A stretch of DNA of 64,000 nucleotides, from the NCBI GenBank assembly GCA_050951545.1, contig JBMNJG010000007.1, forward strand, positions 576,001-640,000. Reading direction: 5' to 3'. The position numbers were made by a program, and so were the translations under genes. Within the stretch, counting starts at the first letter, position 1. Every line of letters starts with the position of its first letter. The notes under the pieces are model-generated. The model was given only the letters and a program-made list of their open reading frames with translations, had not been told where the DNA came from and did no database searches. This DNA comes from Limnochordia bacterium. GTDB lineage: Bacteria > Bacillota > Limnochordia > DTU080. This document shows positions 3,194 to 40,065 of the stretch, piece after piece.

Positions 3194-4366
3194 GTGCAGG
3201 TGCTTACCGCCTTGTACTTCCTCTACTTTTTCTCCTACGGAGTCTATCAGCCGTATATCAACCTCCATTTTAGGCGATTGGGGATGCCCGGATCGCAGAT
3301 TGGTGTTCTCGCCGCCTTGCGCCCACTGCTGATCATCTTTGTGCCCCCATTTGTAGGGTACGTGGCAGACCAGCGTCATGCGCATCGCCGAGCTCTGGGT
3401 TGGCTGTTGATGGGAAGTGTGGTGCCTTTCTATCTGCTGTTGGGTACGCATGACTTTCGTCTGCTGCTGCTTACCATGTTTGCCTTCTCCGCCTTCACTA
3501 GCGCTATCACACCGATGCTCGATACGAATGCCTTGGACGTGCTGGCAGGGGACCGCACGCGCTATGGGTTGCTGCGCCGCTGGGGTTCATTGGGCTATAT
3601 GATTGCTGTAGTGGTGTGTGGCCAACTGGGCGAGAGAAGCTCAATTCCCACGCTGCTTGCCGCCTCCGGGGTGGTGCTGTTGCTCGCGGGGTGCGTCGCC
3701 TGGCACTGGGGGAGGCAGACTGTCGATTTCCCGTCGCTATCAGTGTCAGGTTTGGATTCCGACACCTCTCGGCGATGGTGGAGCGAGATGGCGAGCACCT
3801 GGGGCGAGGTGCTCCGTTTGCCGGGGATGGCAGCACTGTTTGCCGCCGGGTTTCTGGGGTGGGTGGCCTCGTCCACGTATCAGATATTCTTCACGATTCA
3901 TGCGGACGCCCTTGGAATGTCGGAAGGGCTGATTGGGGTGGCCTGGGGCATCGCCGTCGTCAGTGAGATCGTCTTCCTAAGTCTGTCGCGGCGGTTTCTT
4001 ACGCATTGGGGGGCCAGGACTCTCTTTGCCGTGGGCCTGTCCGCTGCCGCTCTGCGTTGGAGCTTGTATGCGGTGGTGGAGAACGTCTATCTGGTGTTGG
4101 GCTTGCAGATGCTGCACGGCTTGACCTTTGGTGCCCTGCAGGTCGGGGCGGTGACCTATCTTCACGCCCAAGCCCCGCCTGAGAGGCGTTCGGGGGCCCA
4201 GACGCTTTGGGTGGCACTGACCACTGGGGTCGCAGGTGCCATCGGCGCCTTTGCCGGAGGACCTCTGTCGGATGCACTGGGTATACAGCCCTTGTTTGCC
4301 CTGTCAGGAATCCTGGCCTTGGCTGGGGCGTTAGTGGGCTGGTTTGGTGTGAGGACTCGGACCTGA
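3194..4366 (+). CDS. MFS transporter (MFS_1-like, LacY/nucleoside symporter-like)
   Basis: About 12 hydrophobic segments. YGLLRRWGSLGY and QMLHGLTFG motifs. GTG start after a GGTGAGG RBS; the ORF is open from 2993. Confidence 0.85.
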   Translation: MQVLTALYFLYFFSYGVYQPYINLHFRRLGMPGSQIGVLAALRPLLIIFVPPFVGYVADQRHAHRRALGWLLMGSVVPFYLLLGTHDFRLLLLTMFAFSAFTSAITPMLDTNALDVLAGDRTRYGLLRRWGSLGYMIAVVVCGQLGERSSIPTLLAASGVVLLLAGCVAWHWGRQTVDFPSLSVSGLDSDTSRRWWSEMASTWGEVLRLPGMAALFAAGFLGWVASSTYQIFFTIHADALGMSEGLIGVAWGIAVVSEIVFLSLSRRFLTHWGARTLFAVGLSAAALRWSLYAVVENVYLVLGLQMLHGLTFGALQVGAVTYLHAQAPPERRSGAQTLWVALTTGVAGAIGAFAGGPLSDALGIQPLFALSGILALAGALVGWFGVRTRT

Positions 4367-4393
4367 TTCAAGTTCATGGGGGAGGTTTCTGGG

Positions 4394-6646
4394 ATGAACA
4401 CCATCAGTCGACGTTCCCAACGCAGTCTTCTAGCCTTGATGCTCCTGGCGGCGATCATTGCCCTCGGTGCCTGTGCCGTGGCCAGCCCAGTGGAGGGGCC
4501 AGTGAGCATCCGCACCCTGTGGCAGCTCGATGAGGCCGTTGAGCTAGATGAGTTCAGAGGTTTTTGGACGGGTGTTCTTCTACAGGAAACCGCTGAACAA
4601 CCGGAGCTGGCTGTGACCTGGTCCCTGGATAGCCAAGCCTTCTGGCCCATCTGGCGTATTCAGGTTGTCGCCAGGCGCGATGCACTGGGTGTCGGTGCAG
4701 GGGCAGGGGCGCAAAAGGAATTCTCATTGTGGCCCGGCATGGAAAGTCTCACCTTGACGACGGTTCAGCCCATACCCGGTCACCGGTACGAGTCGTGCTT
4801 AAGCTACGATCCGGATCTAGGAGGGTTGTCGGTCGTCATTACCGATATGACGGCGGGAAGTGAGATCGTCGCCGACAGCGTTGCTGTACCTGTGCGCCAG
4901 GGCGCCTTCCATCTGGCTACGGGTTTGGTGGCCGGGGGTCAGCGTCAGGAGCAGGCCTCGGCGAGTGTGTTACAGGTAGAGCATGGTTACGTGCCGTGGG
5001 GTGTGCGCTGGAATGTGGCTGTGAGCGAGAGCCCACACGGGGCACCTTTGGCGACCTTTCATGTCGATCGCACGGATGAGGCGATCCTGGATCTAAGCAT
5101 ACCTCATCCAGTGCGAGGCGAGTTCGACCTGTTGCTGGTGCAAGGCGACAGGCAGCTCGAGCTAGGGCGAGTGAGTTTGCCTGCGAGCGGCAGCGTTGCC
5201 ATTCCTCTGCAGGTGGCTGACTGGCCCCTGGGACCAGTCTCCGTGGAGCTGCGCTACTGGGACCGATCAGAGATGACGTTCTGCGCCCAAAAGAGCATCG
5301 TGGTAGGGCGCCTGGTGACGAGTTTCAGTCCGCTGGAACTCGATGAGGATCGGCAGAGCGTCCAGACGACGATGTACTTGAGCAGTCAAGACGAGATGGC
5401 TGATGTGCCCGTGGTGGTGGAGGGGCGGTGGACCGAGCGCGTATGGGACTCTGTGGCCCGCAGGTATCGGGAGCGACTAGCTGCAGATCCCCTGGTTCTC
5501 TTTGCAGGTCCACTAAGCGTAGCTGGCCCCGACTCCCCAGGCGAGGTAGCGCTGTCGATTCCGGTTCCTCGGGAGCCAGGTTTCTGGCGGTTGCAGGTGG
5601 TGCCTGCGGTTGAGTCGGGCGTCCTCGTGCAAGCCTACCCTGTTCAGACGCAAGTTTTCACTTATCCGCCCGCCCAGATTGCCAGCGGCGAGCCCTATAC
5701 GATCGCTGTGTACCCTGACGTGCAGTACTTCAGCAGAAGCTACCCTGAGATCTTGATGCGCATGAATCATTGGGTGGCGGAGAATGCGGCACAGTTGGGC
5801 ATCGGGATGCTTTTGCAGGTGGGGGATATCACGAATGACAACAACGCTGAGCAGTGGACTCGGGTGCAAAACAGCTTTCGCCTCCTAGACGGTACCGTGC
5901 CCTACGCTTTTTCGTTAGGGAATCACGACATGGCCACAGGAGGAGGTAACGTGGCAGAGCGGGGCTTGAGCCTTGTTCAGCGATTTTTCACGCCAGCGGA
6001 TTTCGCAGGCTACAGGGGGGCCTATCCGGAAGGTACCCTCGACAACACCTACCACGAGATTCGGCTGGGCGATGACGACTATCTTGTCTTGGCCTTGGAG
6101 TTCCTTCCGCCTGATGATGTGCTCGCCTGGGCCGATAAGGTGATCTCGGCGCATCCGGATCACCGCGTGATACTAGTGACGCACTTTTACTTGAACACTG
6201 TAGGCAATAGGGCCCCTGCGGGTCGTAGCTCGGGTTATCCTTTGACACAGAACCCAGCCACGACGGTGAACGAGGGCGAAGAGATCTGGCAGAAGCTGTT
6301 GCGCAGGCATGAGAATGTCTTCATGGTCTTCAGCGGGCATCTGAGCTGCACAGCAGTACCCCGCAGGGTCTCCAGAGGGGATAAGGGCAACCGCGTCTAT
6401 GAATTCCTAGTGGACTACCAAAGCGAGCCCGACGGAGGCAGCGGCTGGTTCGCGCTCGTGCACTTCACGCCTGACAACAAGGTGCTGGTCGATGTCTACT
6501 CTCCGTATCTGGGTGTCTATAAGATGGACAAAGACCGCTACGGCTTTGGGAACCGCTTCACGATCGACCTGGAGACGGGGAGGATCAGCGAACCGCTAGA
6601 TGGCTCTGTGAACGCTGATCTGATTCCCGACGATCTGGCAGCCTGA
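4394..6646 (+). CDS. Secreted calcineurin-like metallophosphoesterase with long N-terminal beta-rich region
   Basis: C-terminal motifs PDVQ, GDIT, GNHD, VTH and SGH. Signal peptide. GGAGG RBS. Confidence 0.85.
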   Translation: MNTISRRSQRSLLALMLLAAIIALGACAVASPVEGPVSIRTLWQLDEAVELDEFRGFWTGVLLQETAEQPELAVTWSLDSQAFWPIWRIQVVARRDALGVGAGAGAQKEFSLWPGMESLTLTTVQPIPGHRYESCLSYDPDLGGLSVVITDMTAGSEIVADSVAVPVRQGAFHLATGLVAGGQRQEQASASVLQVEHGYVPWGVRWNVAVSESPHGAPLATFHVDRTDEAILDLSIPHPVRGEFDLLLVQGDRQLELGRVSLPASGSVAIPLQVADWPLGPVSVELRYWDRSEMTFCAQKSIVVGRLVTSFSPLELDEDRQSVQTTMYLSSQDEMADVPVVVEGRWTERVWDSVARRYRERLAADPLVLFAGPLSVAGPDSPGEVALSIPVPREPGFWRLQVVPAVESGVLVQAYPVQTQVFTYPPAQIASGEPYTIAVYPDVQYFSRSYPEILMRMNHWVAENAAQLGIGMLLQVGDITNDNNAEQWTRVQNSFRLLDGTVPYAFSLGNHDMATGGGNVAERGLSLVQRFFTPADFAGYRGAYPEGTLDNTYHEIRLGDDDYLVLALEFLPPDDVLAWADKVISAHPDHRVILVTHFYLNTVGNRAPAGRSSGYPLTQNPATTVNEGEEIWQKLLRRHENVFMVFSGHLSCTAVPRRVSRGDKGNRVYEFLVDYQSEPDGGSGWFALVHFTPDNKVLVDVYSPYLGVYKMDKDRYGFGNRFTIDLETGRISEPLDGSVNADLIPDDLAA

Positions 6647-31453: not shown

Positions 31454-32356
31454 ATGGTGGAAGTGCAGAGAATATGGGATCAGGCATCTCACAACGCGTT
31501 TACCGATCTCGTACGCTTTCAGGATCGCTGGTTCTGTGTCTTTCGGGAGGGGAAGGCTCATGTATCGCCAGATGGCGCGCTACGGGTGATCACATCGACG
31601 GATGGTGACACGTGGGAATCGGCTGCGCTCATCACTTCGGGAGACTCCGACCTGCGCGACGCCAAGATAACCGTAACCCCGGATGGCCAGCTCATGCTGG
31701 CGGGGGCAGAGGCATTGCACGACAAGTCTAGGCAGACGCACCAATCACTGGTCTGGTTCTCTCCCGACGGCCGCACGTGGAGCGACAAGCATGAGATCGG
31801 CGACCCTAACATCTGGTTGTGGCGTATCACCTGGCATGACGACAAGGCATATGGTGTGGGCTACGGTTGTGGCAAGGAACGCCTAGTTCGGCTTTACGTC
31901 AGCAGCGATGGCAAGCGCTACGAAACGCTTGTGGATCGACTTCATGATGTCGGCTATCCGAATGAGACCTCTCTAGTCTTTGACGGGGACACATTGTACT
32001 GCCTGTTGCGGCGCGATGGCGAAAGCAACACAGGTTTGCTGGGCATCTCGCAGCCGCCGTATACCCAGTGGGAGTGGAAGGGTCTGGGCGTGCGTATCGG
32101 TGGGCCGCACATGCTTCGTCTGCCTGACGGCCGCTTCGTATCGGCGGTGCGCCTCTACGATGGCAGTGTGCGTACCTCGCTCTGCTGGATCGATCCGCAG
32201 GCGGGCACGTGCACCGAGTTTCTTGCGCTCCCGTCCGGTGGCGATACGAGCTATGCTGGTCTTGTCTTTCACGATGGGTTGCTTTGGGTGAGTTACTACT
32301 CCTCTCATGAAGAGAAGACGGCCATTTACCTGGCCAAGGTCAGGATTCCGGGTTAG
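31454..32356 (+). CDS. Sialidase-like (BNR/Asp-box) protein
   Basis: HNAFTDL, Asp-boxes STDGDTW and SPDGRTW, GGDTSYAG. Confidence 0.85.
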   Translation: MVEVQRIWDQASHNAFTDLVRFQDRWFCVFREGKAHVSPDGALRVITSTDGDTWESAALITSGDSDLRDAKITVTPDGQLMLAGAEALHDKSRQTHQSLVWFSPDGRTWSDKHEIGDPNIWLWRITWHDDKAYGVGYGCGKERLVRLYVSSDGKRYETLVDRLHDVGYPNETSLVFDGDTLYCLLRRDGESNTGLLGISQPPYTQWEWKGLGVRIGGPHMLRLPDGRFVSAVRLYDGSVRTSLCWIDPQAGTCTEFLALPSGGDTSYAGLVFHDGLLWVSYYSSHEEKTAIYLAKVRIPG

Positions 32357-32372
32357 GGGGAGAGAACGCGTC

Positions 32373-32825
32373 ATGCCAACCTCGTACCGGAAGCTAAATC
32401 ACGAGCTCATTCGCCAAAGGGCTTCGGACATAAGAAGCAACATCGTGTTTTTGCGGGGTCAAGCCACGCGTCCCGATGAAGACTTTCTTTCCGATGATCT
32501 CGCGATCCGGGCATGTCGGTACGCTTTCATCGTGATTAGTGAAGCGGCTGCCAACATCTGCTCTCATACTATCGCTAAGTTGCTGGGGCGAACAGCAGAG
32601 ACGTATGGAGGGTGCTACTCGCTACTGGCGGAAAACGAGCTTATTACCCCCGCTTTGGCTAATCGACTTCGCAAGGTAGCCGGATTTCGCAGCCTTCTTG
32701 TTCACGGATACGCACGTATTGACGATCGCCAGACCCTCCTAATAATGCGTCACAGTCTAGGCGACATGGAGGACTTTCTCACGCAGATCTTTGCACTGAC
32801 GCTTCAGGGGACTGATGCGCCATGA
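32373..32825 (+). CDS. HEPN/DUF86 (HepT-like) toxin
   Basis: RX4HXY motif as GFRSLLVHGYARID. Confidence 0.85.
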   Translation: MPTSYRKLNHELIRQRASDIRSNIVFLRGQATRPDEDFLSDDLAIRACRYAFIVISEAAANICSHTIAKLLGRTAETYGGCYSLLAENELITPALANRLRKVAGFRSLLVHGYARIDDRQTLLIMRHSLGDMEDFLTQIFALTLQGTDAP

Positions 32826-33244
32826 AGAAGCATCATGCCCTCCCTTCCTGCGAACGTGATCGCCTGGAAACGCATCTACACCGTTTTCTCATGGACCAAG
32901 AGAACGTATTGTTTGCCTTTCTCCATGGCTCATTCCTCGATCATGATCTCCCCTTTGGAGACATAGACGTAGCCGTGTTCTTTCGACACAATCCTAAAGA
33001 CCCGGTCAGGGCAATTCTCGACCTAAAGGAAACGCTTGAGAGCGGAATCAACTTCGCATATGAAATCGATGTGCAGATGCTAAATGGTGCTTCGCTTGGT
33101 TTCCGCTTCCATGCGAGTCGAGGTACGGTGTTGGCCTGCAAAGATCAGGAGGCTCTCGATACCTTCCGCCAAGAGACTTGGCTCCGTTACTGGGACTGCG
33201 AGCCGTTTTTGAGGCAAAGTCTGACGTACCTTCTCGAACCGTGA
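32822..33244 (+). CDS. Minimal nucleotidyltransferase (MntA-like antitoxin)
   Basis: FLHGSF..GDIDVAV..IDVQMLN motif; ATGA overlap with the HEPN gene. Confidence 0.85.
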   Translation: MKKHHALPSCERDRLETHLHRFLMDQENVLFAFLHGSFLDHDLPFGDIDVAVFFRHNPKDPVRAILDLKETLESGINFAYEIDVQMLNGASLGFRFHASRGTVLACKDQEALDTFRQETWLRYWDCEPFLRQSLTYLLEP

Positions 33245-33337
33245 CATTCGACACACCAGGAACTGAACAGCGAAGGGAAGTCCGGACATGAAGCCAGACT
33301 TCCCTTTCCTGGTGGCGTGTGGAGGGGACCCCCGACG

Positions 33338-36300
33338 CTAATCCACCGGGAGGCCCACGAACAGGCGGCTGTCGATATCCGCAAGAGGGTCAGTCTCGCC
33401 GGCAGCGGCAGCTCTTGCGAAGACGATACCGGGTCGCTCGGCTCGCATGGCCCGGAGCAAGACGGTATAACCTTCGCGCTCGTGGCGAGCGGCCATGGTC
33501 CGTGACCACTGTTCCCACTCTGAGTGGAGCTTGCCAAACCTGCGCCAGGTGTTGGCAGCCACAGCCCGCAGTTCAGTACAGGTGAGGCCAGCGCTGTAAC
33601 CGTGCCTGATGGTGAGGGATTCCCTGCTGGCATCGGTTACTTCCCGACCACCGGTGATGAGCATGGCCAGTTGGGCGAAGCTTCCTCGAGCCATGCTCTT
33701 TACTGCTAGAATCTGGGGCGCCAGTGGATCAGCTGGTGTGCAGGGCGTGGAGGCCAGATACTCTGCCACTGCTTCGGAATCCAAAGCACTGTCGCCCAGG
33801 TGACCTGCGACGGATGCCCACGACACGAACGGGGCCAGGGACGCTCCCGTGGTTTTGGCTACGGCCAACCCTCTGTGTAGCAGGCTCGTGAGCACTGCGA
33901 TGAGCTCTTGTGTTCCTTTCTCAGCATGAAGCTGCTGGCAGGCTTGGATGAGGGTGGCGCGAGTGACATAGCCCGATGGCGCGGCCACAGTTAGGCCTAC
34001 CAGGGCATCAATCTCTTCTTTCCCGGCGGGGGTCAGGCTGTGCCAGGCCAGCCCCCACATGGCCTCATTGCGTGGTATGAGCTCGGCAAGCAAACTGGGG
34101 TCTCTCTGTAGATGTCCTTCCACCGAAAGATGGACTTCAGCATCCTTCAGTCCGGCAGCCGTGAGGGGTAGGAAGACGGCCACCTGGTCACCATCGAAGT
34201 CCGCCTGTAACCATTGGCACACCAGAGGATGAAGCTGCATAGCGTTTCCCGGCACGCGGACAGGGCGCAGCGCCACCAAGGCCGTAGGGGTAAGCGAAGG
34301 AGCCCGATTGACCAGTACCATGTGCTCTGCCATTACTGCATCGAGCAGCGTGTCATGGTCCAAGTCTTGGGACTTGGGGACGCGGCTGAGATAGCGTCGG
34401 ACGAGGGGTGCGAACATGGTCTTGGCCATAGGCTCAGGAAGGCCGACCTGGCGCATGTCGAGGTCCGCTCCCGGGGTGATGACTGTTCTGGCACTGAACA
34501 TCAGGCGGGAGCGTAGCCGCAGATGGGCTGGCGTAACCAAGGCATCGCATACCTCACTTACGCAGCGGGCCAGGGCTGTAGTGGCTGCCTGCACGAGGGC
34601 GGCGGGGGCTCCGCTCTTCTGCATGCGGGTGAGATGTGCATTGGCTTTCTCGAGATCCTGATAGGCCACGTCAGGCACCACGCCAATCTCCACAAGCTCT
34701 TTCTCTGGGATCCAGGGATGGGCGACAGGTGCAGCGAGTCCTATGACGGTTGTGCAACCTGTGTCGCTGGGGGCGCCAAAGGTGAAGGTGAGCTGCCCAT
34801 CGTGCAGGACGCTCCGTATTCCGGCAGCGGCCAATCGCTGTTGGAGCTCTAAGAAGACCGACGTCGCTTCAGCTGCCTGTACTACTTCGCCCCAGCTTAG
34901 TCGCTCAGCCAATACTGGTGCATCGCGGTGGGCGCTGGAGGCGATGTCTAGCTGCTCGGCAATCAGATCATAGGCCCCGACCGCGCGCAGTGCTGCGAAT
35001 TCCGACGCCCCTAGGATCTGCCCTTCAGGCTCAGCAGCACATACGTGCAACTTGTGACGAGCAAGGTGATTGGTACAGCCCCAGTACACCCAACCAGCAG
35101 TGACCGGCTGCTCAAGACGAGTCTCGGCCTTGGCCATATGCAGGATCTCCTGGCCATCGGTGGGCAGATTCAACCGGCGCAGACGTTCCTGGACGTAGCT
35201 TTCGTCAGGGGCAGAGAAGGGGCGCGCCACAAAGGCTTGGCCTGCTGCCCGGGCGATGCGGCCAGCGATGGCCTCGCGCAACTGGCCGAAGTTCAGGCGG
35301 GTATGCAGGCCGATGAAACTAAAGATCAGATCCACTGGGGTGCCATCGCTGAGCTGTGGCATGTCGCTGTCGGGCAGCACCGTGCTTACTACGCCTTTGC
35401 TGCCGTGTCTATTGGAGAGCTTGTCGCCCGGTTCAAGCGGCTCGCCGTGGCCTAGCCTGTGGGCCGCTGATGCGCTGATGACGATGCCGTCGTCAACCGT
35501 GTCCCCTCCCCACGATGTAAAGGCTGTAAGCAGGTTGCATCCGTGCCAGAAGCTCTTGTCATCAGGTTCGATACCGGACTGCACGAGAGCAGCCTCGGGT
35601 TCATTCGGCATAAGCCACTGACGCATCATATTGGCCCCCATCAGTGTGCGTGCGGGGTCGCTGTGTTCTAAGAAGGGAATCATCGCGGCAGATGGTCCCA
35701 AAGCCAAGACGTCACTGTCACTGTCGCTGGCGGAAAGAAGCTGGCCGTTTTCTATCGTGGCGCCCAGAGCGATGGTCAGTACTCGACCACAGTTGGGGCC
35801 TTCCGGCGTTTCGATGGGGCACACACGTCCGGCGTGGGCGGGAAAAGACGTGGGTGGACCCTCGTTGAGGAGTAGGCGCCGCAGATGGATGCGTCGGGAC
35901 AACCAGTTGGTGGTGTCCAACCGCTGCGCACGCTCTTGCAGAAACGACTCTGTCCACAACTCTAGAGGTAGAAAGGCCTGCAAGAGCGACTCATTCCATG
36001 GAAGCTGGGAGGCAGCTTCTCCAAGGCGAGTGGAGACATACTCAAGCAGTTGCTCACCCACGCACAGGACGCGCGCTCGATCTAACTCGGGCTGATCGGC
36101 GATCGGTACCACCACCCACGCCTCCCCTAGATAGTGAAAGAGGCCCGACAGATCAGGGGTCGGAACGGTGTAGGCGGTCTGCACATCGGCGACCGTGATG
36201 TGCACCGTCACAGTGTCGTCACTGTTCCATAGCGTGTGATACCCTGCCAGAGGCAGTCGCTCATCAAGCAGTCGGGGCAACGTTTCATCTATGCACCGCA

Positions 36301-36355
36301 CAAATGACGCTCGGTGCCAGGGGGTGGCGAAGTCTACACGGCGATGTCTAGACAT
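33338..36355 (-). CDS. Miniature single-chain RNA polymerase (fused RpoB-RpoC catalytic cores), 1005 aa
   Basis: Beta motifs in order: GRVCPIETPEGPN, IPFLEHSDPARTLMGANMMRQ, GDKLSNRHGSKGVV, DMPQLSDGTPVD, RLNFGQLRE, HLARHKLH. Then beta-prime motifs: SARTVITPG, NRAPSL, LHPLVC, QADFDGDQ, ARGS. AAGGAG RBS. Confidence 0.93.
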   Translation of the reverse strand: MSRHRRVDFATPWHRASFVRCIDETLPRLLDERLPLAGYHTLWNSDDTVTVHITVADVQTAYTVPTPDLSGLFHYLGEAWVVVPIADQPELDRARVLCVGEQLLEYVSTRLGEAASQLPWNESLLQAFLPLELWTESFLQERAQRLDTTNWLSRRIHLRRLLLNEGPPTSFPAHAGRVCPIETPEGPNCGRVLTIALGATIENGQLLSASDSDSDVLALGPSAAMIPFLEHSDPARTLMGANMMRQWLMPNEPEAALVQSGIEPDDKSFWHGCNLLTAFTSWGGDTVDDGIVISASAAHRLGHGEPLEPGDKLSNRHGSKGVVSTVLPDSDMPQLSDGTPVDLIFSFIGLHTRLNFGQLREAIAGRIARAAGQAFVARPFSAPDESYVQERLRRLNLPTDGQEILHMAKAETRLEQPVTAGWVYWGCTNHLARHKLHVCAAEPEGQILGASEFAALRAVGAYDLIAEQLDIASSAHRDAPVLAERLSWGEVVQAAEATSVFLELQQRLAAAGIRSVLHDGQLTFTFGAPSDTGCTTVIGLAAPVAHPWIPEKELVEIGVVPDVAYQDLEKANAHLTRMQKSGAPAALVQAATTALARCVSEVCDALVTPAHLRLRSRLMFSARTVITPGADLDMRQVGLPEPMAKTMFAPLVRRYLSRVPKSQDLDHDTLLDAVMAEHMVLVNRAPSLTPTALVALRPVRVPGNAMQLHPLVCQWLQADFDGDQVAVFLPLTAAGLKDAEVHLSVEGHLQRDPSLLAELIPRNEAMWGLAWHSLTPAGKEEIDALVGLTVAAPSGYVTRATLIQACQQLHAEKGTQELIAVLTSLLHRGLAVAKTTGASLAPFVSWASVAGHLGDSALDSEAVAEYLASTPCTPADPLAPQILAVKSMARGSFAQLAMLITGGREVTDASRESLTIRHGYSAGLTCTELRAVAANTWRRFGKLHSEWEQWSRTMAARHEREGYTVLLRAMRAERPGIVFARAAAAGETDPLADIDSRLFVGLPVD

Positions 36356-36373
36356 TGGGCATCTCCTTGCCTG

Positions 36374-36988
36374 TCAATCTGTATCGGGGGTGTGCGCTTC
36401 CCACAGTTGGGCCAGAGACTTGCGGGCGTGATGCAGTCGAGAGCGTACTGTTCCCTCTGGGATGGCCAAGAGGCGAGCTACCTCACGGGAGTCGAGTTCC
36501 TCTTCGTGGATCAGACGGACAACGTCACGCTTTCCTTTTGGCAGGCTGTTGACGAGCTCGTCAAGCAGACGACGCTGCTCAGCTCGCTCCAGGGCAGTCT
36601 GTGGGTTACACGTTACAGTGTCAACCAACCAGCCGGGCACAGGGAGCTCTTCATCGTCTTCAGTAGTTGCTGTCTGCATGACCAGTGGTTGCTCGCGGCG
36701 ACGGTTGAGGGTGCGTAGTTGGTTCAACGCGAGATTGGTGGCGATGCGATAGAGCCAAGCTCGACATGATCCCTGCTCATGCCACGATTCGGCTCTAGTC
36801 CAGACTCTGAGGAAAACCTCTTGCACGATATCATGGGCACTTTCCCCATCCCGTAGGGTGCTGATCACGTGCCGATGCAAAGGTGATTGGTAGCGCTTGA
36901 GGAGAACTTCAAAGGCTACGCTATCTCGCTGCTGCACTTGCCTAAGCAGCTCCTCGTCAGTCTGATGACCTTCGGCCAAGCGCTTCAC
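36374..36988 (-). CDS. ECF RNA polymerase sigma factor, operonic with the mini-RNAP
   Basis: DIVQEVFLRVW, AWLYRIATNLALN and EVARLLAIPEGTVRSRLHHARK motifs; 204 aa. Confidence 0.93.
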   Translation of the reverse strand: MKRLAEGHQTDEELLRQVQQRDSVAFEVLLKRYQSPLHRHVISTLRDGESAHDIVQEVFLRVWTRAESWHEQGSCRAWLYRIATNLALNQLRTLNRRREQPLVMQTATTEDDEELPVPGWLVDTVTCNPQTALERAEQRRLLDELVNSLPKGKRDVVRLIHEEELDSREVARLLAIPEGTVRSRLHHARKSLAQLWEAHTPDTD

Positions 36989-37004
36989 ACCCCTTCACCC
37001 TTAG

Positions 37005-37032
37005 AGACACCGCGCCATCGCCTGGCGTTCAC
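37005..37032 (-). promoter_or_regulatory. Putative ECF-type (autoregulatory) promoter
   Basis: GTGAAC-N18-GTCT on the minus strand, ending 16 nt before the sigma GTG. Confidence 0.55.
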
Positions 37033-37081
37033 TTTTGGTGAGGGGATATCCTGGTTCGCATCACGTGAAGGCGAGCTGGGC

Positions 37082-37110
37082 TTGATTCCTCACCCGATGG
37101 GGGCTATAAT
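37082..37110 (+). promoter_or_regulatory. Sigma70/SigA-type promoter
   Basis: TTGATT-N17-TATAAT. Confidence 0.75.
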
Positions 37111-37175
37111 GCAGGCACTTCATCAGGGGTAGAAGAAGTATGTGCGGAAAAACGTTTTCGAGGAGGTCGCTTAGC

Positions 37176-37376
37176 ATGTTGGCAGTCGTGTACACTGCAC
37201 CCAATCGCCCCGTGGCAGACATGCTGCTCGATATGCTGAAAAACGAAGGGATCATAGGCACGCTACGACCCATCGGTCTGCCGCATCTGGGTGCATCCGC
37301 CAGCGTTGAAATGCTTGTGCCGGAATCACAGGCAGAAGAGGCGACGGAGATCATAAACGCATTTTTCGCGTCCTAG
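37176..37376 (+). CDS. Small DUF2007-like protein
   Basis: VVYTAPN..ADMLLDMLKNEGI..VEMLVPESQAEEATEII pattern; AGGAGG RBS. Confidence 0.75.
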   Translation: MLAVVYTAPNRPVADMLLDMLKNEGIIGTLRPIGLPHLGASASVEMLVPESQAEEATEIINAFFAS

Positions 37377-37495
37377 GCTTAACTTGGGGTGACAACCGTC
37401 GGTGAACGGAGTCTTTGAGTGGGAGAACCCCATTGCCGAGAAGCGAGAACCAGATGCACGATTTAGGGCTTAGATCGCCAGCCTATGTATGCAAG

Positions 37496-37523
37496 AAAAA
37501 GGCACCCCTTGGGGTGCCTTTTC
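37496..37523. terminator. Bidirectional intrinsic terminator
   Basis: AAAAA-GGCACCCC-TT-GGGGTGCC-TTTT between convergent genes. Confidence 0.85.
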
Positions 37524-37625
37524 TCCGGTGCGAATGTCTGTGCGAACTAGGCTGCGGGTGTCCCAAAATCGAACCTGTGACCTCGCCAGGTCAGTCCCTT
37601 TGCGCGATCATGCGTGAGCGTGGTA

Positions 37626-38900
37626 TCATCTGACGAGCGTACGCCGCCATTCCTGCAATCGCGTATTGGCCACGCGGACTGCTTCGTCCAGAGCGGCCTT
37701 TACATTGCCATTCTGGGCGAACTGTGTCTTATAGAACTTCGTGATCTCCGGAGCCACGGACTCCTGCCAGAACGGCACCTTGGGCCGGGCATAGGCGACA
37801 TCCATTTGCTCGTAAGTCACGCGATAGCGCGGTTCATCAGCGAATCGAGTTCGCATGATGGGTGACGTGAAGGTAGAGCGCCGAGCTCCCATGTACCCGG
37901 AAGCCGCGGAGAACCGCGCGTGCTGATCCGTCGAGGTGATGGACTTCAGGAACGTCCAAGCGGCCTCTTTTTGCGCGCTCGTACCAGTATTCATCAGGAA
38001 GAAGTTGCCACCGCCGATGGGGGCGTAATGTTCCTTATTACCTGCCAGTGGGGCTACGCCCATGTCAAAGGTCGCTTTCAGTATGTTGTTGCCCAGCGAT
38101 GCGGTTGATCGCTCTGTCATGCCCAGCTGGTTGTTCCAGAAGAGGTTGTAGCCGCTGCTACCCGCATAGTAGGCTACGCCGTGTTCGTGCACCATGTTCT
38201 GCACAAACTGCATGGCCTCCACTGCGGCGGGGGAGTTGAAGGTAAACTCAGTCAGATCGTCGTTGAGGATGCGTGCCCCATTCTGACCTATCCAGGCTTC
38301 GAAGAGCCAACCCCAGGAGTAGAAGTCAAAACCATACACATCGTTCTTGCCATCGCCGTCTGTGTCACGGGCGATTTTCTTGGAGAAGGCAAGGATCTCG
38401 TCCCAGGTCTTGGGAGCCTGTGGTTGCAGACCCGACCGCAAGAAGAGGTCCCTATTGTAGTAGATCAGGGGGGTGCTGTTGTTGTAGGGCAGACCACAGA
38501 TGTTGCCGTCGTAGGTGACGGCACCCAACATGCTCTGCGAGAAATCTTTCAGATCGATGCCGTTGGGTCCCTTAATGTAGGGCCCGATATCCAAGAGGGC
38601 GCCGGAGTAGTAGAAGGCTGCGCTGCGGGTCTGCTCAAACATGGCCACATTGGGAGCCGCTCCACCAGCCCAGGCGACCAACGCCTTTTCCATTCCTTGC
38701 ACGTATCCCCCGATATAGACGATCTCAGCCTCTATCTCCGGATGGGCCTTGCTGAAATCTTCGCAGATGGCGTCAAAGGACTTTGATGCCTCGCCAGTAT
38801 CCAGCGAGTGCCAGACAGTGATACTCTCTTTCGCGAACGTACTAGGAACCATCAGCAGAGCGACTAGGACCACGGTCGACACAACGAGTCGGCATCTCAT
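37626..38900 (-). CDS. ABC solute-binding protein (UgpB-like)
   Basis: GLPYNNSTPLIYYNRDLF, PKTWDE, PIGGGN and AAWTFLK motifs. Confidence 0.9.
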   Translation of the reverse strand: MRCRLVVSTVVLVALLMVPSTFAKESITVWHSLDTGEASKSFDAICEDFSKAHPEIEAEIVYIGGYVQGMEKALVAWAGGAAPNVAMFEQTRSAAFYYSGALLDIGPYIKGPNGIDLKDFSQSMLGAVTYDGNICGLPYNNSTPLIYYNRDLFLRSGLQPQAPKTWDEILAFSKKIARDTDGDGKNDVYGFDFYSWGWLFEAWIGQNGARILNDDLTEFTFNSPAAVEAMQFVQNMVHEHGVAYYAGSSGYNLFWNNQLGMTERSTASLGNNILKATFDMGVAPLAGNKEHYAPIGGGNFFLMNTGTSAQKEAAWTFLKSITSTDQHARFSAASGYMGARRSTFTSPIMRTRFADEPRYRVTYEQMDVAYARPKVPFWQESVAPEITKFYKTQFAQNGNVKAALDEAVRVANTRLQEWRRTLVR

Positions 38901-39204
38901 TTCGTGAACCCCCCATCAAGTCACTTGCCCCTGTCAGAGTGAGAAGTTACCAGATAGCAGTAGTTAATTCTCTCTGGGGGTTAGCCACTCCTGCTGCTGG
39001 TTCTACAGATGTTAGCTGGTGCGGATTACGCTCTACGTGAGTGTGTGGATCCCAGAGTGGATGCCGAAGCGCGTTCCTTGCGAGGCGATGCGATCAATCG
39101 TCGGCGAAGTGTTTCTATGATACCCATCGCAGGCAATCGTTCGGGAGAGGAAGTGTCTTGGTGTTGCAGAAATGACTCACCATGATACAAGGGGGGCATC
39201 AGGC

Positions 39205-40065
39205 GTGCATATACACATCCTGGGGTCGGCTGCTGGCAAGCCAGTGCCACGCCCCTTTTGCGCTTGTCGGGTGTGTGAGCACGCCCGACACGTCGGAGGA
39301 AAAGACCTCCGCACACGTACTACGGTGTGTTTGTACCCGGGCGACACGTGGAGTATGCAAGGTCCGATCAAGAAGCCGCGCTACCAGGTTGACCTGTCTC
39401 CCGATCTGACATACCAGCTAGATCGTCAGCGTGTTGATCTGAGCGATCTCGAGCATTTACTTTTCACTCATGCACATGCCGACCATTGCTGTGGGCAGTA
39501 TCTGGCTTTTCGTCGCACTGTGCGCGGCCCGGTCTCGGCACTGCCTCTGCTGCATGTCTACGGGGACTCCGGGGTGCAACAGCGCTTGCTCGCTGACATC
39601 CAGGACCTCGAGGCGAATCGTTGCGAATTCCACCTAGTTGATGGTGGCGACACACTTGACGTAGGGGAACTCCGTGTCACAGCCTTTGCGTCCACACATG
39701 GTGGAGCTCTGGGTTGCCTGCATTTCGGCATTGATGATGGCCAGCATAAGGTGCTTATGGCGTGGGATGGCTGGTGGGAGGAGCAGGTATGGGATCGTCT
39801 GCGCGACTGGAGCTTTGATGCACTGATTATGGAGTGTACCTATCTCGGGCCGCATGAGACGAAGATGGCTAGCCATCTCAGAGCCGCGGATTTTCTGGAG
39901 ATCAGGCGGCGGTTGATTGCTCAGGGTACTTTGGATTCCGATGCACTGACTGTGGCGTTGCACATCGGTGACAATGGCGGCTTGACCCATGAAGAGGCCC
40001 AGGATCTGTTGAGTGAGCACGATATCATCGTGGGCTACGACGGTCTAGTGGTAGAGGTGTGGTGA
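39205..40065 (+). CDS. MBL-fold metallohydrolase (PhnP-like)
   Basis: LGSAA..PFCACRVC, THAHADH, MECT and SHL motifs. Confidence 0.85.
   Translation: MHIHILGSAAGKPVPRPFCACRVCEHARHVGGKDLRTRTTVCLYPGDTWSMQGPIKKPRYQVDLSPDLTYQLDRQRVDLSDLEHLLFTHAHADHCCGQYLAFRRTVRGPVSALPLLHVYGDSGVQQRLLADIQDLEANRCEFHLVDGGDTLDVGELRVTAFASTHGGALGCLHFGIDDGQHKVLMAWDGWWEEQVWDRLRDWSFDALIMECTYLGPHETKMASHLRAADFLEIRRRLIAQGTLDSDALTVALHIGDNGGLTHEEAQDLLSEHDIIVGYDGLVVEVW

Follow-up and report, generated by a model that had tools for sequence, protein, structure and literature searches.

A compact single-chain homologue of RNA polymerase beta and beta' encoded beside its own ECF sigma factor in a Limnochordia genome and in several other bacterial phyla

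In all cells, transcription is taken to depend on a five-subunit core enzyme of approximately 400 kDa (PMC5467207). YonO, encoded by the Bacillus prophage SPbeta, equals the multisubunit enzyme in the efficiency of RNA synthesis, but its fidelity is lower and it does not proofread (Forrest et al. 2017, PMC5467207). The genes that YonO transcribes are late genes of the phage; the same paper leaves open whether factors are required and assigns roles to the flap, lid, rudder, and zinc finger, including lid-dependent separation of RNA from DNA and the prevention of R-loops (PMC5467207). Here, we analyze a 64,000-nt stretch of the genome of a Limnochordia bacterium (the window) and a gene within it for a chain of 1005 amino acids, referred to as the mini-polymerase, which lies directly behind a gene for an extracytoplasmic function (ECF) sigma factor. 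The protein is real, conserved, and under selection; it derives from bacterial beta and beta', which have been heavily trimmed and joined in a single chain.

Several described enzymes resemble the mini-polymerase in part. Full-length beta/beta' fusions likewise carry beta and then beta' in one chain, but their NCBIfam models NF011417 and NF007172, which we take to represent the Helicobacter and Wolbachia type fusions, have 2839-2890 positions and cut-offs of 4632 and 5372 bits, whereas the mini-polymerase scores 161.5 and 146.8 bits. Such fusions replace the normal enzyme, while the mini-polymerase coexists with it. The killer-plasmid polymerase Orf6 of yeast is about 1000 amino acids long. 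It is a simplified Rpb2::Rpb1 core fusion of the same order that also stands outside the main transcription apparatus, but it is eukaryotic-type, plasmid-borne, and without a sigma (PMC2919709), and it is set beside the mini-polymerase by description rather than by sequence comparison. YonO shares with the mini-polymerase the form of a single two-barrel chain of about 100 kDa without trigger-loop homology; however, it is prophage-encoded and has few catalytic residues in common with multisubunit enzymes, whereas the mini-polymerase is plainly beta/beta'-derived, chromosomal, and sigma-linked, a contrast that is drawn from the published description (PMC5467207) and not from a direct sequence comparison. 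What a preliminary description of this DNA had stated about the divergence of YonO and the size of the full-length fusions fits both these NCBIfam scores and the YonO paper (PMC5467207). Phage multisubunit-type polymerases, from IMG/VR and jumbo phages, are also reduced, beta/beta'-like, and encoded outside the host operon, but they occupy two genes or one open reading frame (ORF) of 1815 amino acids, where the mini-polymerase is one compact chain.

The canonical enzyme of the same genome shares its catalytic motifs, clamp helices, switch 2, and funnel with the mini-polymerase, and probably the bridge helix as well. It is built from two chains of 1241 and 1192 amino acids, however, and possesses a lobe and protrusion, flap, zinc finger, lid, rudder, jaw, and trigger loop, all of which the mini-polymerase lacks. 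The ordinary ECF sigma and ECF-type promoter found beside the mini-polymerase are likewise those of a canonical ECF holoenzyme.

No description of the family was found in a literature search that left the supplements on ECF groups outside its scope. The main text of the ECF re-classification by Casas-Pastor et al. 2021 (PMC7826278), its supplements not being covered, holds nothing on the family, and the excerpted text of a 2010 survey (PMC2919709) treats killer-plasmid, insect-virus, phage, and YonO-like enzymes and mentions no sigma-linked bacterial family. No NCBIfam, PADLOC, or PHROG model names it. The family belongs to the two-barrel RNA polymerases, in a sigma-linked bacterial form that we did not find described.

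Beta and beta' cores in one trimmed chain

The window genome comprises 3.64 Mb in 16 contigs and is 94% complete. The two genes and the parts of the mini-polymerase are positioned as follows:

33338..36355, minus strand: mini-polymerase ORF, 1005 amino acids, ATG start, frame open throughout
36374..36988, minus strand: ECF sigma ORF, 204 amino acids, GTG start
36356..36373, minus strand: intergenic spacer of 18 nt from the sigma stop to the mini-polymerase start
36368-36363, minus strand: ribosome-binding site AAGGAG, inside the spacer and 7 nt ahead of the mini-polymerase ATG
34745..36355, minus strand: beta-like half, residues 1-537, with N-terminal beta fragment, fork, hybrid-binding region, beta double-psi barrel without flap insert, and C-terminal segment
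35393-35428, minus strand: beta barrel motif GDKLSNRHGSKG, residues 310-321
33338..34744, minus strand: beta'-like half, residues 538-1005 and stop, with LAAPVAHPW remnant, clamp helices, switch 2, barrel, funnel, and putative bridge helix
34526-34678, minus strand: clamp helices, residues 560-610, with two long helices at 566-606 in the AlphaFold model
within the beta'-like half, minus strand: switch 2 motif FSARTVI of the mini-polymerase
34187-34201, minus strand: DFDGD (within QADFDGD), residues 719-723, in the beta' barrel
end of the beta'-like half, minus strand: conserved C-terminal block of the mini-polymerase, 48 amino acids

These coordinates and the AAGGAG site agree with the preliminary description, which had reported an intact frame with a good ribosome-binding site 18 nt behind the sigma gene. 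It had also read RpoB core motifs followed by RpoC core motifs, and a Pfam scan of the kind it had suggested recovers exactly this order, with Rpb2_3 (residues 171-201, 2e-8), Rpb2_6 (307-441, 1e-31), and Rpb1_2 (667-739, 3e-21) all above their curated cut-offs. These represent three of the 11 domains detected in the RpoB and RpoC of the same genome, which are full-size (1241 and 1192 amino acids) and encoded by adjacent genes on contig C4, so a canonical rpoBC does exist elsewhere, a point the preliminary description had left for confirmation.

Profile and structure comparisons place the chain among bacterial enzymes. The family profile matches PDB chains of bacterial beta at 2.9e-73 and of beta' at 5.5e-48, with profile positions 300-394 aligned to E. 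coli beta 1054-1148, and the bacterial NCBIfam models outscore the archaeal ones. The mini-polymerase nevertheless stays far below the cut-offs of the canonical models, at 150.2 bits versus 801 for rpoB (TIGR02013) and 92.9 versus 963.5 for rpoC (TIGR02386). An AlphaFold model built with the family alignment reached a predicted local distance difference test score of 90.6 and a predicted template modelling score of 0.89, and in a Foldseek search with it against the PDB all 50 listed matches were second-largest (beta or B) chains of RNA polymerase or entries containing one (best 2.5e-22).

When the family profile is aligned to RpoB and RpoC of the window genome, with the Pfam domains mapped on both, a map of what has been kept emerges:

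mini-polymerase 46-85, RpoB 91-134: N-terminal beta fragment, a weak match
mini-polymerase 106-204, RpoB 402-512: fork, with the fork loop 2 region about 11 residues shorter
mini-polymerase 206-264, RpoB 578-636: beta region ahead of Rpb2_6
mini-polymerase 260-295, RpoB 708-743: beta, beginning of Rpb2_6
mini-polymerase 303-537, RpoB 879-1129: beta barrel and C-terminal segment
mini-polymerase about 534-544, RpoC 102-112: LAAPVAHPW remnant
mini-polymerase 560-777, RpoC 264-516: clamp helices, switch 2, and DFDGD barrel
mini-polymerase 771-957, RpoC 553-762: pore, funnel, and putative bridge helix, covering Pfam Rpb1_4
mini-polymerase 977-1001, RpoC 1110-1134: C-terminal block, a weak match (score 41; shuffles 30.6 +/- 3.9, maximum 45)

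In this alignment the lobe and protrusion (RpoB 135-401), approximately 25 residues of the rudder, and the trigger loop and jaw (roughly RpoC 763-1095) have no counterpart in the mini-polymerase. Only about 5-10 residues separate the end of the bridge-helix alignment, near residue 957, from the C-terminal block. This block is the second most conserved of the family; it matches RpoC weakly in the pairwise comparison, and a hidden Markov model of the C-terminal profile (residues 940-1005) finds no match in the genome's own RpoC.

Conservation, selection, and gene pairing

Of 8000 candidates scored in a protein search, 613 matched at E <= 0.001. The 120 matches listed are all 960-1135 amino acids long, align over 93-100% of the query with 41-48% identity, and have the same Pfam domains, so that near-full-length homologues of about 1000 residues, for which the preliminary description had proposed to search, are plentiful. 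In their sources they are labeled 'hypothetical' or with bare lists of Pfam domains. A scan of one genome for each of 185,579 species found a relative encoded in 282 of 446 candidate stretches, and the 80 best loci, several of them on complete chromosomes, were used for all locus analyses. They span Chloroflexota, Poribacteria, Planctomycetota, Latescibacterota, Armatimonadota, and Hydrogenedentota, and one further locus comes from 'Candidatus Moanabacter', a genus presumably of the Verrucomicrobiota. Architecture and length are the same in 78 of the 80, complete chromosomes included, and the chains of the other two are truncated. The window protein itself is accompanied by 8 cluster members from several sources at 98-100% identity.

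The core motifs named in the preliminary description (GDK, NRAP, and DFDGD) are present and conserved across the 61 members of the family alignment. GDK, the NR pair, and K312 are found in all 61, K320 and H430 in 59, R684 (of NRAP) in 60, R623 in 58, and D289 in 56; K312 and K320 are the two basic residues of the beta barrel motif GDKLSNRHGSKG. In the metal-binding triad, D719 is kept in 59 members and D721-G722-D723 in every one, and switch 2 follows the family motif FSGR(A/S/T)VI. The Asn of NADFDGD is invariant in canonical enzymes. At the corresponding residue 717 (34202-34204, minus strand) the family has N in 42, D in 10, Q in 6, and E in 2 of the 61 members, with Q in the window copy.

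Selection was estimated by the Nei-Gojobori method, another check raised in the preliminary description, using 18 genes from Poribacteria, Latescibacterota, and Chloroflexota (153 pairs). In all 53 pairs above 60% identity, which come from lineages other than that of the window, dN/dS lies between 0.115 and 0.228, as expected of purifying selection. A FastTree tree of 78 proteins follows the phyla closely: it requires 7 label changes, compared with a theoretical minimum of 5 and a mean of 34.5 for shuffled labels (none of 200 shuffles was as low). Because the tree tracks the phyla, the family looks old and maintained mostly by vertical descent within phyla, with a few transfers. The group that contains the window protein has 28 rows, 26 of them Chloroflexota. 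Two chains from Latescibacterota (L010 and L013) are sister to the Poribacteria clade (support 97), and their promoters share the downstream stretch AGTGAAAGCCTTTT with Poribacteria; together, these observations hint at a transfer between the two phyla.

The upstream gene encodes a sigma factor of the ECF type (group 4), reduced to regions 2 and 4, as judged from its domain matches (Sigma70_r2 at 4e-17, Sigma70_r4_2 at 2e-13, no match to r3; NCBIfam sigma70-ECF model TIGR02937 at 103.4 against a cut-off of 42.9). The cognate sigmas of 50 other loci are 38-51% identical to it, and among the 51 sequences D53, Q56, W63, and W78 are invariant. Region 2.2 has the canonical form, and its residues D53, Q56, and E57 vary little or not at all. 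The linkers of ECF sigmas are usually variable; here, the linker between sigma2 and sigma4 (residues approximately 118-129) contains the motif P-x-W-[ML]-[IV]-D...P, in which W120, D123, and P129 are kept in at least 90% of the 51 sequences. The linker motif is thus a candidate contact with the mini-polymerase.

Pairing could be evaluated in 72 of the 80 loci, two being excluded for truncated chains and six for having less than 650 nt of upstream sequence. In 69 of these, the gene immediately upstream encodes a sigma and has the same orientation (65 by ORF call, and L042, L044, L056, and L068 after over-long ORF calls were discounted), and in 71 a sigma gene lies within 3 kb, which bears out the conserved pair anticipated in the preliminary description. 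Three loci depart from strict adjacency: the sigma gene stands 690 nt upstream of the chain in L046, an S9 peptidase gene (3233-5638) is inserted between the two in L081, and L037 has an IS200-like transposase gene (PF01797, 4107-4538) and no sigma with the chain intact. Elsewhere the two genes often overlap or sit close together, as in L052, where they share an ATGA overlap.

No other gene family accompanies the pair: all-against-all clustering of flanking ORFs gave none in more than 10 loci, shadow ORFs aside, and no alpha or omega gene is linked to it among the conserved neighbors. An anti-sigma gene next to an ECF sigma gene is common but not universal. No anti-sigma gene is conserved beside this sigma, the rest of the genome not having been searched for one. 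The downstream neighbor is convergent in 44 of 66 loci. Among nearest neighbors (108 of 133 scanned; most of the 25 dropped belonged to near-duplicate loci of Poribacteria and Chloroflexota), genes of ordinary metabolism and transport prevail, the commonest family being MFS_1 with 4 of 108. A mobile-element context was considered as a general rule and rejected, as no transposase, integrase, or phage family occurs among the 25 listed of 104 neighbor families.

Two apparent fusions of sigma and chain were also considered and set aside. P0094, a metagenomic protein of 1135 amino acids, joins sigma region 2 (to about residue 140) in frame to chain residue about 70, but its N-terminus is partial and it has neither sigma region 4 nor the N-terminal domain of the chain; it may have arisen by natural deletion or during assembly and is not accepted as a 'Rosetta stone' for the pair. 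In L052 the genes are separate.

The promoter and the possible functions of the pair

The sigma gene is preceded by an ECF-type promoter:

37006..37031, minus strand: TGAAC (37031-37027), N14, CGGTGTC (37012-37006), ending 17 nt before the sigma GTG

The same TGAAC-N14-CGGTGTC arrangement occurs ahead of the sigma gene in 42 of 71 upstream regions, mostly 17-35 nt from the start codon, and the spacer is fixed in 40 of these 42 sites. Taken singly, TGAAC is found in 51 of the 71 regions against 9 of 70 controls, and GGTGTC in 41 against 3. Such a geometry is ordinary for an ECF sigma on a full core.

The reading we favor, to which we give slightly less than an even chance, is that the pair forms a minimal single-chain RNA polymerase with its own sigma docked through region 2. 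The ORF would encode a catalytically competent polymerase, a beta-beta' fusion pared down to its active-site core, in which the two double-psi barrels are accompanied by fork, switch 2, funnel, clamp helices, and a putative bridge helix. Metal- and substrate-binding residues that are invariant or nearly so across phyla, purifying selection, and the retention of fork, switch 2, funnel, and probably the bridge helix together point to a working templated polymerase. Switch 2 and funnel have been linked to the transcription of double-stranded DNA and are shared by DNA-dependent members of the superfamily (Ruprich-Robert & Thuriaux 2010, PMC2919709), and the efficiency of YonO indicates that so reduced an enzyme can work. 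With the flap, lid, rudder, zinc finger, lobe, jaw, and trigger loop gone, the enzyme is predicted to be simple and poorly proofreading, with an open RNA exit path. Sigma and mini-polymerase would be co-transcribed from the ECF-type promoter, most likely recognized by the sigma itself, which would amount to positive autoregulation. The mini-polymerase has to be made before it can act on its own gene, and the first round of transcription would thus probably fall to the host core carrying the sigma at this promoter, or else start from a housekeeping promoter. The same sigma may then dock on the mini-polymerase through region 2 and let the chain start at sigma-specified sites. In canonical enzymes, sigma region 2 docks mainly on the clamp helices, and the retention of these helices in an otherwise stripped clamp, together with the nearly unbroken pairing and the frequent gene overlap, argues for such docking. 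As such, what stands of the second, sigma-dedicated RNA polymerase put forward in the preliminary description is its origin as a trimmed derivative, its coexistence with rpoBC, and its near-obligate unit with the sigma gene (69 of 72); the polymerizing, sigma-directed module itself we carry forward as a conditional reading.

Several findings weigh against sigma-directed transcription by the mini-polymerase. The flap (RpoB 744-878) is deleted and replaced by about 8 residues (mini-polymerase 295-303), the zinc-finger region (RpoC 1-101) has no counterpart and residues 500-560 contain a single Cys, and RpoC 113-263, comprising the clamp core and lid, is likewise without a counterpart. Sigma region 4 is the part of a sigma that the flap holds. 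With flap, zinc finger, and lid deleted, region 4 of the cognate sigma has no known anchor on the chain, and the strict spacing between -35 and -10 looks as if it were read by a core holding both sigma domains; in cellular enzymes, it is the flap that binds sigma or TFIIB (PMC7824862). A complex prediction for sigma 8-196 with chain 195-1005, run without controls, scored 0.01 and 0.07 against a mark of 0.32; we count it on neither side of the question of binding. The bridge helix is a further difficulty. A long helix at 926-957 of the AlphaFold model aligns with the bridge-helix stretch of RpoC, and the block is poorly conserved, in fact the least conserved of the family, with 2 of 32 columns conserved at >=90%; the window copy reads NTWRRF at residues 935-940 (about 33533-33550, minus strand) where the family has GAREGL, and W at position 937 is found in 4 of 61 members, namely the window copy and three others that include the two nearest matches shown. 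Overall, the window copy keeps 244 of the 277 columns conserved at >=90%, the third lowest value of the 61, with its catalytic residues all intact despite this divergence.

The regulon is the other difficulty. The strict motif occurs once in the 3.64-Mb genome of the window, at its own operon, and the looser GAAC-N15-GGTGTC shows no enrichment there, with 12 matches compared with 3-12 for other spacers and 23 in the reversed-genome control. Across the complete genomes of five other carriers, the motif has 17 matches versus 2 for the reversed pattern. Five of these are the self sites, all intergenic with the sigma gene next, and 10 of the 12 non-self matches fall inside or antisense to unrelated ORFs. 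The genes concerned (a duplicated TPR-glycosyltransferase and genes for a macroglobulin-like protein, Lon, a sugar-phosphate-isomerase-fold protein, ATP sulfurylase, a WD40 protein, and others) are diverse. No gene family is common to the 12 non-self sites, which were rejected as regulon targets; the two intergenic ones, before unrelated genes in L105 (a carbonic anhydrase gene) and L106, are not excluded individually. In all six genomes scanned, then, a promoter-placed motif is found only before the pair's own operon and no regulon is visible, which leaves the mini-polymerase as the sigma's only visible output.

In a different division of labor, the sigma would merely regulate the operon on the host core and the mini-polymerase would be an effector that acts without it. 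We regard this as less probable than the holoenzyme reading; the loss of the flap, the strict promoter spacing, and the absent regulon would fit it. A sigma promoter unique to its own operon in six of six genomes, a bootstrapping step that requires the host enzyme at that promoter, and the fixed-spacer geometry speak for it; a canonical region 2.2 (D53, Q56, E57) should fit a normal beta', and the chain lacks flap, rudder, and zinc finger as well as the lid, for which roles have been described (PMC5467207). Such an effector might start at ends, nicks, single-stranded DNA, RNA templates, or self-recognized sites, as YonO may do, and its products would be primers, R-loops, antisense RNA, or template-copied RNA made under the condition that switches the sigma on. 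With lid, rudder, flap, and zinc finger absent, the RNA exit side is open, and extended RNA-DNA hybrids or templates other than duplex DNA are plausible. What it leaves without a reason is that the clamp helices were kept while nearly all other parts of the clamp were lost, that the pairing is nearly unbroken (71 of 72) with genes that often overlap, which is tighter than a mere regulator needs, and that the sigma linker carries a family-specific conserved motif.

A decoy core that binds sigma or nucleic acid without polymerizing, and titrates its own sigma from the place of an anti-sigma, is much less probable still. ECF operons usually hold an anti-sigma gene after the sigma gene, and it is exactly there that the chain is encoded, with no conserved anti-sigma in that place; the retained clamp helices, the missing trigger loop, and the variable Asn of NADFDGD could also be accommodated. 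However, a decoy would have no need of metal- and nucleoside triphosphate-binding residues that are invariant or nearly so across phyla, nor of fork, switch 2, and funnel, and 1005 amino acids are far beyond what binding sigma region 2 takes. An artefact, whether a chimeric assembly or a decaying rpoBC pseudogene, could appeal to the window copy alone, whose terminal branch in the tree is the longest noted (0.97 versus a median of 0.28) and which deviates at 33 of the 277 conserved columns. Set against the constant architecture and length in 78 of 80 loci, complete chromosomes included, the eight nearly identical cluster members from several sources, the open frame with its ribosome-binding site, and purifying selection in the family, this explanation has a negligible probability and is refuted for practical purposes.

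A bolder version of the holoenzyme proposal is possible, although we hold it only tentatively. Here, sigma and the 110-kDa chain would constitute a complete, self-sufficient, promoter-specific polymerase and an orthogonal, self-amplifying circuit, the smallest cellular-type holoenzyme, without alpha, omega, flap, or trigger loop. The clamp helices would hold the sigma together with a new contact, for which the conserved linker motif is a candidate, and the output would come from sites too degenerate for a motif search or take the form of persistent RNA-DNA hybrids. If the holoenzyme proposal is true, some Chloroflexota, Poribacteria, Planctomycetota, Latescibacterota, Armatimonadota, and others carry a second polymerase, and a chromosomal 110-kDa beta-beta' core with its own sigma is a natural experiment on the parts needed for catalysis and sigma-directed initiation. 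It would then offer a tractable minimal model for structural work and possibly a compact orthogonal transcription unit for engineering, and the missing regulon would be a sharp and testable puzzle.

Genomic surroundings and distant relatives

The pair is flanked by a HepT/MNT pair and genes for a GNAT acetyltransferase, an ATP-binding cassette (ABC) solute-binding protein, and an MBL-fold protein. No phage genes were found around it, in keeping with the preliminary description, which had placed the locus outside the rpoBC operon context and away from phage genes. Rfam gave no match over the whole window at the gathering threshold. The HepT-like ribonuclease (PF01934, 2e-23) and Pol-beta-type nucleotidyltransferase (PF18765, 8e-13) genes occupy 32307-33244 on the plus strand with a 4-nt overlap; they resemble a toxin-antitoxin-type pair of the HEPN/MNT kind and converge on the mini-polymerase gene. 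Two weak PADLOC matches of CARF models on sigma region 4 are taken as helix-turn-helix noise, and PADLOC matched nothing on the chain.

Close relatives of the window genome rarely share the pair. None of 300 other sampled genomes of the same phylum has a match at E <= 1e-60, and among 40 relatives two of five same-family genomes contain contig-end fragments (45% and 49% identity), with matches in none of two same-genus, six same-order, or 27 same-class genomes. One same-genus genome (G306:C48, L110) is collinear on both sides, with a single gene for a 221-residue outer-membrane protein beta-barrel (1.3 kb) in between, where the window has 6.9 kb (32340-39206) with HepT, MNT, mini-polymerase, sigma, and ABC solute-binding protein genes. 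The pair thus sits in a variable stretch in the window genome. Window positions 37176-37360 and 39066-39131 match other contigs of same-genus genomes (G306:C18 for the former; G306:C70 and G307:C316 for the latter) at 83-85% identity and may be small dispersed repeats.

Mobile DNA offers only distant counterparts. A tblastn search at 1e-20 found no match in 72,556 plasmid or 50,697 phage records, PHROGs contributed only generic phage beta/beta' and sigma families, and a BFVD fold search only generic large-subunit matches and no compact single-chain look-alike. In IMG/VR there are distant relatives, the best at 2e-20 and over parts of the protein. Three of its contigs (L116 2766-8213, L117 4194-9954, and L122 4167-10074) carry one ORF of 1815 amino acids or gene pairs of 903 and about 1010 amino acids. 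The ESM Atlas contains two family clusters (73 and 135 members) and, as leads only, unnamed fused forms of 1221-1787 amino acids. Together, the viral enzymes and these fused forms suggest a graded series of reduced fusions.

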